Virus record (IMG/VR): IMGVR_UViG_3300001796_000003
Coordinates: 7,577-71,576 of that record
Strand: one strand, 5' to 3'
Origin: a virus
Length of the DNA: 64,000 bases
Shown here: in pieces, positions 2,029-7,614 of the stretch
Numbering within the stretch: position 1 is the first letter of the stretch
How the letters are laid out: each line of letters opens with the position of its first letter
Program-made: the position numbers and the translations under genes
Notes under the pieces: generated by a model
Told to the model about the DNA's origin: nothing
The model's database searches: none
What the model saw: the letters and a program-made list of their open reading frames with translations, nothing else

Positions 2029-4245
2029 ATGGCTATTTCAGTTTCATTCAACGGCTCAACAATTTATAAGCCGGGTTCATATTCAAAGCGTCAGATTGAC
2101 CTCGGCGGAGGTTTTCCTCTTAGTCCTACTGGACTAATTGCCCTTTTTGGAGAGGCAACCGCTGGGACGCCAGGCGCCGATGTACCCAACATTGCTAACA
2201 ATGTTTTCACTCCGGATCAGCTGCCTACAATCAAGCAGATCTATCGTAGTGGCCCTCTCGTAGACGCTTGTAACTTCCTGTTCGCTCCTGGTGCTGATGG
2301 TGCAATTCCGTCTGGCGCTCAGGCTATCTACATCTACAAGACCAACGCGTCGACTTTGGCATCGCTTGCACTAGCCAACTCTTGGGGTTCAGTCGAAGCT
2401 CGCGAGTTCGGTGCTGGCGGTAACCGTCTTACCTTAACGAATGCTCTTGTGCCTGCAACTTCAGCATCAACGGCATCGAGTGCAACGTTTGATCTCACAG
2501 GTGGTGCTCTCGATACTAAGACTTTAACTCTTCATGTTCAGGGCACTGGAACTGTAAACACATTCACTGTTCCTGCTTCAACTACTACTCGTGCACTTCT
2601 CACGACAGCATTAGCTGCAGGCGGCAACTGGTCCGGCGGCGTTCCTTCTGGTCTCACTTTCACTGTTGGAGGTGCAAGCGATGCGGCGGCCACGTTAACA
2701 ATCGCTCGCGTTGCAACTAGCAATCCTCATCGTGAAGGATACGGTCGCAACTTCCAAATCACCGCTGGTTCCGCGACCGGTGTTGGTTCTGGTACATTCA
2801 AGATTGCTACTGGCCTAGTGGTTGCTAGCTCAGAAGATATGGCGCTTCTTACAGTACAGAACACTCGCGATCTTGTTACTGAAACCGCGACAGTTGGCGG
2901 AAACGTCGTATTAAAGGTTGGTCGTCTCAACGGTACTTCTCCGCAGGTCATTATCGATGCAACGACAATCAGACTAATGAACAACGCGGTTGCTGAGTAT
3001 ACTCTCAACAAGACCGACTTTGATACAGTTCAGCAGGTTGCTGACTTCATTAGTGCCAGCACTGGCGGCAATTGGATGGCGACCGTCGGTAGTGTGCTCT
3101 TTGGTCAGCTTGGCCCGGATGTTCTTGATCGTGTAACAGTTGGTGCTTGGACATCTGTATTAGATGCAAGCAATCTTCCTGCTCAGATTAAGAAGGATGC
3201 AAGCGAGGTAGCGGACTTCTTCGAAGCTTCAAGCAACGTTGAATTAGAGGTTGGTGCAAACTCGTACTGTGGTTTGCCTGAAGCGCTTTCGGCTACATAC
3301 CTCGCGGGTGGCGCTGTTGGTGCAACCAGCACATCGTCAATCGTTGATGCTCTTACGGCTTTCCAGAAAGTGCGTGTTAATGCGGTTGTTCCGTTGTTCT
3401 CGCGTGATGCAACTGATGACAAGGCAGATCTACTCACGGATACTGCGTCAAACTATACGTTGGCGGGTATCCACCAGGCTGTCAAGACTCATTGCAGCTT
3501 AATGCGTACTACTAAGGCTCGCAGTGAGCGTCAGGGTTACTTGTCAATTAAGGACACTTATGTCGCTTGCAAGGAAGCGGCGCAGACGCTTGCTGATGCT
3601 AGCATGCAGTTGCTGATTCAGGATATTAAGCAGAATGACAGCGCTGGCGTAATCAAGTGGTTCCAGCCTTGGGCATTGGCTTGCTTGCTTGCAGGCGCTC
3701 GCGGTGGTTCTCCTGTCGGTCTCCCAATGACCAACAAGTACTTGAACTGCTCTGGTATCCGTCAGACTGCTCAGGCGATGAGCGTTGATGACGCAGACAT
3801 CGTTGAGGATTTTGATCCTGATACACAGTATGAAGATGCGATCCGCAACGGCCTCACGTTCCTAGAACACCCGCAGAACGGCGGCTACCGTGTTGTGGTT
3901 GACAATACCACCTACGGTCGGGATGGCAACTGGGTATACAACCGCGCTCACGTTCTCTACGCAGCTGATATCCTTGAGTACGATTTCCGTACTCAGCTTC
4001 AGAATATCTACGTCGGCGTGAAGAACACGGTATCGGCAGCTGAAGTAGCTGGCACCTGCGACTCGATCCTAGCAACGTACCTCGCTCAGGGCATCACAGT
4101 ATCAACGCCTGACGCCAAGCAAGGTTACAAGCAGTTGTCAGTTCAGATCGTGGGCAACACGATTAATGTGAATGTCACTGCGAAGCTCGTTGAAGGCGTT
4201 GACTTCGTGCTCTCGACGATCAACTTGCAGCGCGTTCAGTCGTAA
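2029..4245 (+). CDS. contractile tail sheath protein
   Basis: 738 aa; N-term (KPGSYS..LIALFGEA..G.P) and C-term (..YRVVVDNTTY..N...V.Y.AD...YD.R..L...YVG..N) match sheath-family patterns; strong SD; followed by a terminator. Confidence 0.93.
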   Translation: MAISVSFNGSTIYKPGSYSKRQIDLGGGFPLSPTGLIALFGEATAGTPGADVPNIANNVFTPDQLPTIKQIYRSGPLVDACNFLFAPGADGAIPSGAQAIYIYKTNASTLASLALANSWGSVEAREFGAGGNRLTLTNALVPATSASTASSATFDLTGGALDTKTLTLHVQGTGTVNTFTVPASTTTRALLTTALAAGGNWSGGVPSGLTFTVGGASDAAATLTIARVATSNPHREGYGRNFQITAGSATGVGSGTFKIATGLVVASSEDMALLTVQNTRDLVTETATVGGNVVLKVGRLNGTSPQVIIDATTIRLMNNAVAEYTLNKTDFDTVQQVADFISASTGGNWMATVGSVLFGQLGPDVLDRVTVGAWTSVLDASNLPAQIKKDASEVADFFEASSNVELEVGANSYCGLPEALSATYLAGGAVGATSTSSIVDALTAFQKVRVNAVVPLFSRDATDDKADLLTDTASNYTLAGIHQAVKTHCSLMRTTKARSERQGYLSIKDTYVACKEAAQTLADASMQLLIQDIKQNDSAGVIKWFQPWALACLLAGARGGSPVGLPMTNKYLNCSGIRQTAQAMSVDDADIVEDFDPDTQYEDAIRNGLTFLEHPQNGGYRVVVDNTTYGRDGNWVYNRAHVLYAADILEYDFRTQLQNIYVGVKNTVSAAEVAGTCDSILATYLAQGITVSTPDAKQGYKQLSVQIVGNTINVNVTAKLVEGVDFVLSTINLQRVQS

Positions 4246-4270
4246 TTCTAATAAATAGAATGAAGAACAG

Positions 4271-4298
4271 AGACCCCGCTGGAAACAGCGGGGTTTTT
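4271..4298 (+). terminator. Rho-independent terminator
   Basis: AGACCCCGCTG-GAAA-CAGCGGGGTTT then TT; GNRA loop and U-tract after sheath. Confidence 0.9.
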
Positions 4299-4311
4299 GT
4301 ATAATTTGTAC

Positions 4312-4638
4312 ATGGGAATCGTCAAAGCTAAAGTATGGATATCTGCGCCTGTATCTGTAGGTGTAGAATACTCTTTTGCTGTAGAGATTGAGTCGCCCGT
4401 GGCTATGCCAATAAAGACTTATCGAATAACTCTGTATGAGGTTTTATCGCGAACCTATTCTAAGGTCGAATCTACTAAAGTAATATTAAACATACTAGCC
4501 GAAAGAGTACTCAACGACTATAATGCGTGTATCGAAGACTCTCCGATTTTAGATATGTTTGAACATCCTGATAGATATGAAAAATGTTCATCGATTCAGT
4601 TCGAAAGAACGTTTGCTACTCTAGAACACACCTTCTAA
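4312..4638 (+). CDS. hypothetical protein (moron-like insertion between sheath and tube)
   Basis: ATG at 4312 lies 6 nt after TATAAT (4300-4305); AT-rich; no recognisable domain. Confidence 0.6.
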   Translation: MGIVKAKVWISAPVSVGVEYSFAVEIESPVAMPIKTYRITLYEVLSRTYSKVESTKVILNILAERVLNDYNACIEDSPILDMFEHPDRYEKCSSIQFERTFATLEHTF

Positions 4639-4639
4639 G

Positions 4640-4712
4640 TCAGGGATGAGAATCTTGCAATCTCAACCTCTCGCTCCCAAAGCGAGCGCTCTTCTTTTGG
4701 AGCTAATCCCTG
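4640..4712 (-). tRNA. tRNA-Pro(TGG), non-canonical D/T loops, CCA not encoded
   Basis: Minus strand reads CAGGGAT TA GCTC CAAAAGAA GAGC G CTCGC TTTGGGA GCGAG AGGTT GAGAT TGCAAGA TTCTC ATCCCTG A: 7-bp acceptor, 4-bp D stem, 5-bp anticodon stem with U33-UGG-G37, C1:G72 and A73 Pro identity elements; TATAAT 7 nt upstream. Confidence 0.8.
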
Positions 4713-4719
4713 GTGATCC

Positions 4720-4725
4720 ATTATA
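4720..4725 (-). promoter_or_regulatory. -10 element for the tRNA
   Basis: ATTATA on plus strand = TATAAT on minus strand, 7 nt before tRNA position 1. Confidence 0.7.
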
Positions 4726-4750
4726 CTCGTGTACCTGTTGGGCAAAAGCG

Positions 4751-4759
4751 TGTTACTAT
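4751..4759 (+). promoter_or_regulatory. extended -10 element TGTTACTAT (tube promoter), divergent from the tRNA promoter
   Basis: TGnTAnnnT upstream of the tube gene, which needs its own promoter because of the sheath terminator. Confidence 0.5.
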
Positions 4760-4812
4760 GTTAAAGTAGTCAAATTCAAGGTACGCCAGAACCGAACTGG
4801 CAGGAGAATACA

Positions 4813-5370
4813 ATGGCAGGCAAGATCCCTTCTTTCGTAACGGGTGCTACAGCAAAAATTAAGGCGGGCGGCAGAACGTTCGCGTATGCGCAGGATGTTT
4901 CGTATCGTGTTGCAGTCGACACTATCCCAGTTGAGACGATGGGGCGATATGAGGCTGTCACCAATGAACCGGTAAACTACTCTGTTGCCGGCGAATTGTC
5001 GATCGTTCGCTATACCAGAGTAGCACAACAGAATGGTTTGCAGGGCGCTAGCTCGGGCGGTAACGGCCTTGGCAATGTTACTTGGGCTGGTCAGTCAGGT
5101 CCTGGTGCTATTGGTTCGGCACACTTCGATCCTAGCAACCTCATTGTATCTCAGACTTGGGATCTTGAGGTCTTCCAGAAGATCAACGCGGGTTATAACG
5201 CGGGTCCGGATGACGTCTCACTGATGAAGATCACTGATTGTCGCTTCAACAACAAGTCAGCAGGTCTTAACAAGCGCGGTATTCTCGTAGAGCGTATGTC
5301 TTTCGTTGGTATCCTCGCAAGCGACGATAGCTTCACGGCCGGTAACTCAGGTAACAACGACCTAGAGTAA
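4813..5370 (+). CDS. major tail tube protein
   Basis: 185 aa after sheath; tube-like pattern (VTGATAKIKAGG...QDVSY...IPVETMGRYE...VNYSV.GELSI); strong AGGAG SD; own terminator. Confidence 0.8.
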   Translation: MAGKIPSFVTGATAKIKAGGRTFAYAQDVSYRVAVDTIPVETMGRYEAVTNEPVNYSVAGELSIVRYTRVAQQNGLQGASSGGNGLGNVTWAGQSGPGAIGSAHFDPSNLIVSQTWDLEVFQKINAGYNAGPDDVSLMKITDCRFNNKSAGLNKRGILVERMSFVGILASDDSFTAGNSGNNDLE

Positions 5371-5390
5371 AATGTAGTTGTTCGAGATGG

Positions 5391-5422
5391 AAAGGGGAGC
5401 TAGCAATAGCTCCCCTTTTTCT
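5391..5422 (+). terminator. Rho-independent terminator (possibly bidirectional)
   Basis: AAAGGGGAGCTA-GCAA-TAGCTCCCCTTT followed by further T's. Confidence 0.9.
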
Positions 5423-6793: not shown

Positions 6794-7189
6794 ATGGATC
6801 TACCTATCACCCAATCAGTTTTTGATTTTGAAATTACTAGCGAATTAGGAAAGAAGTACGACGGCCAGTTTGCAGTTCACTGTGTACTAAGCATGCGCCA
6901 GAAGCACGCCTTAGAACTTGAAAAGACTCGTCTGTTGGGCAATTTCGCCAGCCCCACTGATGAATTGGCTGGCATCGCTGTCATCCTTTCTAATCTCCGC
7001 GCTCGCATCATCACTGGTCCATCATGGTGGGAACAGAGTGACGGTGGGTACAATATTGCTGACATTGATGTACTTACGGCGCTCTATAATAGAGTGATTC
7101 AGGCAGAGACCGAATGGCGAAACAAGCTCAAAGAGAAGACCAAGAAGGCTCAGGAAGCAGTGGCGAACCCGGCCTCATCGAATCCGTAA
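6794..7189 (+). CDS. tail assembly chaperone (gpG-like)
   Basis: 131 aa between tube genes and tape measure; GGAG SD. Confidence 0.7.
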   Translation: MDLPITQSVFDFEITSELGKKYDGQFAVHCVLSMRQKHALELEKTRLLGNFASPTDELAGIAVILSNLRARIITGPSWWEQSDGGYNIADIDVLTALYNRVIQAETEWRNKLKEKTKKAQEAVANPASSNP

Positions 7190-7614
7190 GGTTAATAGCA
7201 GCTTACAACGCTAGAGCTCCTCTCACGTCTGAGTACCAGATGACTCTTTTTCTAAAGAGTTGGTGGTCTACTCATTACAACCGTCCGTTGAAAGACCCAC
7301 TCCTCGAGAGCTACACTTTCGAGGAGTTGTTGTATGAATTCTTCGATAAGAGTGAGCGACAAAAGGCTTCTGAAGAAAACGTTGTCAAAGAAACTGATAA
7401 AATGGAAGAAGCCAAGGAAAAAGAGGTACTTGACTGGGCTGAAGAGGAAGAGAAAAAGGAACTGGAAGAATTGAAGCGTGCTGCCGAGAAGATCAAAGAT
7501 CCCGCGAAAGACCCGCAGAACATACAGTGGATGAATGATCAGATGGAGAAATACAAGGAAGCATACGGAGAGTCTTTTGGTGAAGATATTGAAGAATCAT
7601 TTGATGGGGAATAA
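7114..7614 (+). CDS. tail assembly chaperone extension (gpT-like), likely expressed by -1 frameshift from 6794
   Basis: Overlaps the 3' end of 6794..7189 in the -1 frame and lies directly before the tape measure, the classic G/GT layout. Confidence 0.6.
   Translation: MAKQAQREDQEGSGSSGEPGLIESVRLIAAYNARAPLTSEYQMTLFLKSWWSTHYNRPLKDPLLESYTFEELLYEFFDKSERQKASEENVVKETDKMEEAKEKEVLDWAEEEEKKELEELKRAAEKIKDPAKDPQNIQWMNDQMEKYKEAYGESFGEDIEESFDGE

Follow-up and report, generated by a model that had tools for sequence, protein, structure and literature searches.

The 64,000-nt stretch of viral DNA analyzed here, referred to as the window, carries a 73-nt tRNA-Pro(UGG) gene on its minus strand, between a tail sheath gene and a gene at the tail-tube position, in which A18 and G55 take the place of the canonical elbow bases G18 and U55. 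The gene is real, it is an orthologue of tRNA-Pro(UGG) genes in related phages, it has evolved by compensated changes, and it belongs to an A18/G55 class that recurs among phage tRNAs. Based on the sequences of the gene and its relatives, we consider it probable that the element is a working, phage-encoded tRNA with an alternative elbow, which is the best reading of the evidence presented below.

Genomic setting

The IMG/VR virus record from which the window is taken is 97 kb long and, according to CheckV, ~56% complete. Two DNA sequencing runs from subsurface metagenomes contain the sequence, with no RNA run among the matching runs, and a 172.5-kb contig in a subsurface metagenome run is identical over the 801 bases compared, with no variants. 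A blastn search with positions 4200–5400 against a collection of deposited phages gave no match. The plus strand holds 41 of the 45 long ORFs in the window. The features discussed in this work are listed in Table 1.

Table 1. Features at the tRNA locus (positions in the window)
Feature	Position	Strand	Basis or remark
Tail sheath gene, upstream neighbor	2029..4245	+	phrog_279, E 2e-30
Small conserved ORF converging on the tRNA 3′ end	4297..4638	+	Stop codon 1 nt from A73
tRNA-Pro(UGG) gene, 73 nt, CCA not encoded	4640..4712	-	RF00005 match, minimum-energy cloverleaf, orthology
T-loop UGCAAGA: U54, G55 (4658), C56, A58, A60	4653..4659	-	
U48, Levitt partner of A15	4665	-	15:48 covariation in 34 distinct tRNAs
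Terminator-like hairpin with T-rich tail, complement of the anticodon arm	4670..4686	+	
Anticodon UGG in loop UUUGGGA, with U33 and G37	4677..4679	-	Sequence and Infernal alignment
D-loop CAAAAGAA: A18 (4695) and G19 (4694), not GG; A15 (4698); private extra C (4699)	4692..4699	-	
TATAAT hexamer, possible -10 element	4720..4725	-	7 nt upstream of the tRNA 5′ end
Upstream motif ACACGCTTTTGCCC	4740..4753	-	Shared: ACACT-W-TTGCCY in L003, L006 and L008
185-aa ORF at the tail-tube position, downstream neighbor	4813..5370	+	Position only

An earlier reading, made from the sequence alone, had located the tRNA between sheath and tube. The sheath assignment is confirmed by the PHROG match, whereas the 185-aa ORF matches no PHROG or Pfam family and owes its tube label to position alone. 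ORF 4297–4638, which has no family match, is 40% identical to L006:1713-2030, found in the equivalent position in a related phage. A strong bidirectional terminator-like hairpin (4267–4300; 15 pairs, 8 of them G:C) directly follows the sheath gene, and because it overlaps the listed TTG start of ORF 4297–4638, the true start of this ORF is probably further downstream.

Two other interpretations of the locus were considered and rejected. A plus-strand 64-aa ORF (4646–4840) is not regarded as coding, as relatives have tRNAs and no conserved ORF here and no plausible ribosome-binding site was seen. An attP site or integration remnant is not supported, since the gene is full length and part of a phage-lineage tRNA series whose T-arm pattern is almost absent from species genomes. 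Codon supply is uninformative as a rationale for the tRNA: of the Pro codons in the window ORFs, CCA is used least (17%, with CCT at 40%), and there is no codon-usage signal.

Sequence and fold of the tRNA

Read on the minus strand from 4712 to 4640, the gene comprises a 7-bp acceptor stem (CAGGGAU/AUCCCUG) followed by U8 and A9, a D-stem (GCUC/GAGC) enclosing the D-loop, a single G, an anticodon stem (CUCGC/GCGAG) with its 7-nt loop, a variable loop (AGGUU), a T-stem (GAGAU/UUCUC) with its loop, and the discriminator A73. The T-stem contains four Watson–Crick pairs and an unpaired U53/U61. With stem lengths of 7/4/5/5, the arrangement is the standard four-arm cloverleaf, which is also the minimum-energy fold (-26.9 kcal/mol, z -2.3). 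In a search of 800 nt, Rfam RF00005 matches the element over model positions 1–71, that is, at full length, with 41.9 bits (E 2e-7), where the gathering cut-off is 29 bits. The bases directly 3′ of A73 are CUU, in agreement with the sequence-only reading that CCA is not encoded.

The core of a canonical elongator tRNA is retained in part. G19:C56, U54:A58, U8, U33 and the Levitt pair A15:U48 are kept, whereas A18 is found instead of G18, G55 instead of U55, and U53/U61 instead of G53:C61. The canonical A14 is absent as well, with a C at or before this position. Infernal aligns this extra C as C14, and MAFFT treats it as a bulged base that precedes a class-typical AAAAGNA loop; it is private to the window tRNA and occurs in none of the other members of the 34-sequence alignment described below.

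In bacteria, as established for Escherichia coli, the identity set of tRNA-Pro consists of the anticodon bases G35 and G36, A73 and C1:G72, with G37 serving for m1G37. All of these bases are in the window sequence. Thus, the Rfam test identifies the element as a tRNA, its identity bases mark it as a tRNA-Pro, and every base that had been listed for the proposed minus-strand cloverleaf is found in the sequence. The marks of a pseudogene are absent: the gene is full length, the anticodon loop is kept, and the sole unpaired stem position, U53/U61, is lineage-wide. A further suggestion, that the tRNA serves recoding in connection with a chaperone frameshift at ~7090–7240, finds no support in the tRNA, whose anticodon loop has the normal 7 nt and whose G37 is the anti-frameshift state.

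Orthologues at the sheath/tube junction

Using the 185-aa ORF as query, we retrieved 16 related phage loci with 48–75% identity. In four of them (L002, L003, L006 and L008), the same sheath/tube gap is occupied by a cluster of minus-strand tRNA genes. It lies just upstream of the 185-aa ORF, is ordered Pro(UGG)-Leu(UAG)-(His)-Phe(GAA) and begins with the Pro gene. The other 12 show no tRNA at the junction, which identifies the tRNA cluster as an accessory module. The Pro(UGG) genes of the relatives are called by ARAGORN at default settings and score 54–62 bits with Infernal, and the window tRNA has the lowest score of the five orthologues. Locus, strand, anticodon, C1:G72, A73 and the overall cloverleaf are alike in the window tRNA and the Pro genes L002:1387-1458, L006:2541-2612, L003 and L008, and we conclude from this correspondence that the window element is a positional orthologue of bona fide tRNA-Pro(UGG) genes. 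In the window it stands alone, the rest of the Pro-Leu-(His)-Phe cluster having been lost.

Two further observations concern the relatives. First, the phage tRNA-Pro(UGG) genes at L002:1387-1458, L003:2691-2762, L006:2541-2612 and L008:2695-2768 have A37 (or the loop UUUGGAG) rather than G37, as do many Pro tRNAs among loci L018–L072, while the window copy has G37; the m1G37 site in tRNA-Pro prevents +1 frameshifting. Second, the cluster of L006 contains a minus-strand ORF of 109 aa (2186–2515), placed between the tRNA-Pro and tRNA-Leu genes. Its match to HNH is weak (E 0.064), and inspection of its DNA by eye shows pairs of Cys as well as an HH motif. Judged by these features, it is likely a homing endonuclease, which would fit a mobile tRNA module.

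Coupled changes in the window lineage

Alignment with the four orthologues separates shared from private changes. The U53/U61 mismatch and A60, together with the T-stem GAGAU/UUCUC, are common to the window tRNA, L002 and L006, and therefore constitute a lineage feature. The window lineage alone has A18, G55, A15:U48, G37, G59 and the extra C after the D-stem; the orthologues have G18/U55, G15:C48 and A37. Two acceptor-stem changes are also private, and both are compensated (5:68, A:U to G:C; 7:66, G:C to U:A). In all, eight substitutions form four coupled pairs, namely 5:68, 7:66, 15:48 (G:C to A:U) and 18/55 (G/U to A/G), and no stem pair is broken by window-lineage substitutions relative to the orthologues.

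We compared this pattern with a simulation in which 8–16 random substitutions were placed on the L002 sequence, scoring trials in which all 20 stem pairs stayed intact and at least two were doubly changed. This outcome was reached in at most 2.4e-4 of the trials. The coupled, stem-preserving pattern is thus rare in simulation, and neutral decay does not explain the divergence. A canonical tRNA in the relatives combined with private, random substitutions in the window had been named in advance as the signature of a simple pseudogene. The closest relatives do carry G18/U55/G15:C48 and the swap is private, but the pattern is the opposite of random. The odd bases, which had been attributed to something other than random decay, can now be assigned to two sources: U53/U61 and A60 are shared with relatives, and A18/G55 and A15:U48 match a recurrent class.

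Outside the pattern-constrained region, the sequences nearest to the window tRNA are all U55 Pro tRNAs, with L006 and L002 at 73% identity, followed by L030 and L019. One metagenome scan for the window Pro lineage gave six further relatives, all of them G18/U55 and none G55. As the nearest relatives are all U55, the window lineage gained A18/G55/A15:U48 on its own and did not derive them from the G55 Pro main lineage, of the L036 type, and it is the G18/U55 state of the other orthologues that makes the direction and independence of the swap readable. The independent swap is convergent, which argues for a favored, coupled state, yet it has been seen only once in the window lineage.

A recurrent A18/G55 class in phage tRNAs

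The sequence-only reading had proposed a search for the same D- and T-loop substitutions in related phages, and pattern scans recover an A18/G55 class of 19 distinct tRNA sequences. A first IMG/VR pattern scan, with the shared T-arm and position 55 left free, gave 18 loci, of which 17 combine U55 with GG in the D-loop. The remaining locus, L022, has G55, a CAAAAG D-loop and U48 as in the window, with entirely different acceptor and anticodon stems. A second IMG/VR scan, requiring G55, gave 38 contigs. Together with the window and a genome scan, these yielded the 19 sequences, many with an encoded CCA, and their anticodons are of at least seven types: Pro, Val, Lys, Ile (two anticodons), His, Thr and Phe.

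The class alignment contains 34 distinct tRNAs, 19 with G55 and 15 with U55. Position 18 is A in 18/19 G55 tRNAs and G in 15/15 U55 tRNAs, the D-loop bases being A18-G19 and G18-G19 in the same proportions. The Levitt pair 15:48 is G:C in 23 of the 34 and A:U in 11, and is never mismatched; G19:C56 is invariant throughout the alignment. All 12 acceptor and anticodon pairs covary, with 92.6% of cells paired versus 68% after shuffling (covariation score 0.64 versus 0.16). The T-stem was fixed by the search pattern, and its invariance in the 34-tRNA alignment therefore carries no weight. Running ARAGORN with relaxed thresholds on all fetched loci gave 648 tRNAs and extended the comparison beyond the pattern T-stem: among tRNAs with a G55 T-loop (TGC, AGC, CGC or GGC), 55/62 are without GG in the D-loop, which mostly reads A-N-A-G, whereas nearly all of the several hundred with U55-C56 have a GG D-loop, 497 in the TTC class alone. 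Many G55 phage tRNAs have a TGCAAG T-loop, so that G59 of the window tRNA is not odd.

The window tRNA falls within this class, with A18-G19 in the D-loop CAAAAGAA and U54-G55-C56 in the T-loop, and the hallmarks of selection in the class, compensated stems and recurrence in independent lineages, are found for it as well. A scan of 185,579 species genomes for the 21-nt G55 T-arm pattern returned three matches, all on MAG contigs and one of them not a tRNA. The G55 T-arm of this pattern is essentially phage-borne. A literature search of limited extent found no published description of A18/G55 tRNAs. The window contributes to this class a syntenic orthologous series that differs in elbow state with every change coupled, and the swap is combined here with an unusual U53/U61 T-stem.

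Two variations of the T-arm were noted in the course of this survey. The T-arm GAGAU-U(G/U)CRAAA-UUCUC with the U53/U61 mismatch is present in phage tRNAs of at least eight specificities on more than 50 viral contigs (L018–L072, for example L036:6760-6832, L040:504-575 and L047:8556-8627); G53:C61 is otherwise near-universal in tRNA. Many phage T-loops in the relaxed ARAGORN output read AGCGUUA or AUCGUUA (L022, L035, L055, L066, L068, L071 and L072), with U54:A58 reversed to A54:U58, often in combination with G55 and A-N-A-G D-loops.

At L036:6671-6832, a canonical-elbow tRNA-Pro(UGG) and a G55/A18 copy lie ~12 nt apart, scoring 66.8 and 37.8 bits, respectively, and the G55 copy is missing from the ARAGORN output. 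L041, L043, L050, L061 and L063 likewise hold canonical and G55 tRNA-Pro(UGG) within 400 nt. Such side-by-side arrangements, found at 6 of the 24 G55 Pro loci, hint from the sequences that the two forms are not simply redundant. This non-redundancy would also suit a role outside translation: the tRNA-shaped RNA might serve as a decoy that occupies a host enzyme directed at tRNAs, or might act in processing or regulation, with elbow changes that keep it off the ribosome or EF-Tu. Staphylococcal cell-wall tRNA-Gly provides a precedent: according to PMC4574755, these non-proteinogenic tRNAs also lack G18/G19/U55/C56 and bind EF-Tu weakly, and the NP1, NP2 and NEW species, with U18U19 or C18U19, are aminoacylated and serve cell-wall synthesis. 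They thus share with the window tRNA the loss of the G18/U55 elbow signature, and are nevertheless used by the cell. However, the staphylococcal tRNAs described there lose G19:C56, whereas the window tRNA keeps it along with the anticodon loop, the ProRS identity bases, U54:A58 and the Levitt pair. The tRNAs of its class cover many specificities, have proper anticodon loops and in many cases encode CCA, as decoding tRNAs should, and 17/24 G55 Pro loci have no other tRNA-Pro within 400 nt. We therefore regard a non-translational role as very unlikely.

Detection by tRNA finders

The expectation that the gene is hidden from standard scanners was borne out. ARAGORN calls no tRNA in the window with default or relaxed thresholds, and cmscan of the whole 64-kb window reports no match at either the gathering or an E-value threshold; a match of 41.9 bits is missed here because the speed filters of Infernal drop it. 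A tRNA search of the phage's own record likewise missed the gene and found only one other tRNA, outside the window. This sole scanner-visible tRNA (L001:1501-1575, at G000:C1:79615-79689 of the genome) scores 60.3 bits and has a canonical elbow. Its anticodon arm can be read with a 9-nt loop (UUUGCUCAA) or with a 6-bp stem and the loop UUGCUCA. ARAGORN assigns it as Ser(GCU), although the variable arm is short and base 73 is G.

Poor detection bears on the possibility that the window tRNA is a recently inactivated relic of an otherwise lost tRNA cluster, looking intact since too little time has passed. Its rejection by ARAGORN even at relaxed thresholds and its 41.9 bits, compared with 54–62 in the orthologues, would fit this explanation, as would the shrinkage of the cluster from three or four genes to one, the private extra C adjoining position 14, a promoter that is not conserved and a swap that is private to the window lineage. 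However, a G55 Pro tRNA that is kept across ~24 contigs also scores only 37.8 bits and is missed by ARAGORN and filtered Infernal, so that a low score is a property of the class and not a sign of decay. In addition, every lineage-specific stem change is compensated, the tertiary changes are paired in the manner of a class that has recurred independently, and random substitution gives the observed pattern at no more than the small frequency stated above. A relic is thus unlikely, and a working tRNA of a class that filtered scans systematically undercount is the preferred reading.

Transcription signals and the plus strand

The sequence-only reading had credited the gene with a promoter of its own, on the basis of TATAAT 7 nt upstream, and had taken promoter and intact stems together as evidence of selection. 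The hexamer is present, and a start from it would fall at about the first base of the tRNA. However, it is a perfect -10 hexamer without an acceptable -35 element: a sigma-70 scan of 4200–5000 (-35 and -10 spaced by 16–18 nt, at least 9/12 matches) found no promoter. With 34 copies in the window versus 28 expected, TATAAT shows no enrichment, and the upstream regions of the orthologues have no -10 element at the equivalent place; what they share is an ACAC-TTTTGCCC motif, with hairpins further upstream. The case for a dedicated promoter is weak. Selection for structure is supported by the compensated stems and the coupled elbow changes. No obvious terminator separates the tRNA 3′ end from the antisense run into ORF 4297–4638, and a minus-strand transcript would continue antisense through this ORF to the bidirectional terminator at 4267–4300.

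On the plus strand, the tRNA region folds with -25.9 kcal/mol (z -3.7), and terminator-like hairpins at 4670–4686 and 4672–4688 are followed by CGCTCTTCTTTT. With 41/45 long ORFs in this direction, the strand is certainly transcribed, and an intrinsic terminator, an attenuator or a structure that stabilizes the mRNA could be envisaged in the gap separating the small ORF from the tube-position gene, with the tRNA shape as a leftover. The hairpins given by the terminator scan at 4670–4698 are weak, short at 5–6 bp, with an interrupted T-tail. A plus-strand role leaves the acceptor, D and T arms, the UGG loop, and the Levitt and 18/55 coupling unexplained, and the tRNA element is missing from the junction in 12 of the 16 relatives; it is also compatible with a tRNA role. 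We consider a role confined to the plus strand highly improbable, and even jointly with a non-translational role it remains quite unlikely; the terminator-like signal may be an incidental second effect of the tRNA gene.

Discussion

We propose that the window encodes an elongator tRNA-Pro(UGG) of the phage, which would be transcribed from the minus strand, opposite to the tail-gene operon, and would be the last survivor of the minus-strand accessory cluster Pro-Leu-(His)-Phe at the sheath/tube junction. With C1:G72, A73, G35, G36 and G37 in its sequence, the tRNA would be charged by ProRS and would decode CCN codons. Since CCA is not encoded in the tRNA, it would be added by a host enzyme; genes for CCA addition or tRNA repair (PF01743, PF09414) were not found in the 97-kb record, which is ~56% complete.

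Several observations count against a working tRNA. The extra C is private, the score is the lowest among the orthologues, and the rest of the cluster has been lost, so that the locus is eroding. There is no -35 element or conserved promoter, CCA is not encoded, the CCA codon is the rarest for Pro, and the swap is seen once in the window lineage.

G18 and pseudouridine-55 form a near-universal pair that is read by modification enzymes, the elbow contacts of the ribosome, RNase P, T-boxes and at least one nuclease directed against phages. In the proposed structure, an alternative corner would hold the L-shape: A18 would slot into the T-loop in place of G18 and contact G55, with G19:C56, U54:A58 and the A15:U48 Levitt pair kept. 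A structural rationale comes from riboswitches. A preprint (bioRxiv 10.1101/2022.12.26.521914) describes UGNRA as the T-loop consensus of FMN and cobalamin riboswitches, in which an intercalating adenosine enters between the fourth and fifth loop bases and is joined by two hydrogen bonds to the sugar edge of the second base, G. It presents tRNA, whose second T-loop base is U, as the exception. U54-G55-C56-A57-A58 of the window tRNA, together with A18, matches UGNRA plus adenosine. These modules are riboswitch tertiary contacts and not tRNAs, and by analogy A18 might dock in the same way.

G55 would preclude pseudouridine-55 (TruB), and A18 would preclude Gm18 (TrmH). Without U55, the tRNA may also escape other readers of the U54-U55 step, such as T-loop nucleases of the Cash/Schlafen type. 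The CRISPR-associated Schlafen nuclease CbCash is reported to cut tRNAs 5′ of U55 in a UUC motif, and single U54 or U55 mutations abolish cleavage; whether phage tRNAs are targets is left as an open question by its authors (PMC13462974, 2026). Nuclease evasion by the window tRNA is plausible by analogy with this system. It would resemble another strategy in that the tRNA deviates from the host-type consensus at a site that a defense nuclease reads: T5-type phage tRNAs with anticodon-loop variants reportedly escape host tRNA nucleases, as Azam et al. are said to have described in 2024. The known cases alter the anticodon loop, whereas the window tRNA is altered in the T-loop and D-loop.

A more tentative possibility, drawn from these analogies, is that A18/G55 is an adaptive counter-defense, which would make the tRNA unreadable to Cash/Schlafen-like T-loop nucleases, TruB and TrmH and still competent for translation. 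The window would then capture the conversion of G18/U55/G15:C48 to A18/G55/A15:U48, which took four coupled point changes and happened separately from the switch in the other G55 lineages. For this idea, the window tRNA and its L002 and L006 orthologues constitute a natural matched pair, and orthologues that differ in elbow state make the hypothesis directly testable with two small RNAs.

If the recurrent A18/G55 alternative holds, phage tRNAs are undercounted by standard annotation. It would represent a second viable architecture of the tRNA elbow, borrowed from the generic T-loop/adenosine solution, and phages may use it against T-loop-directed defenses.
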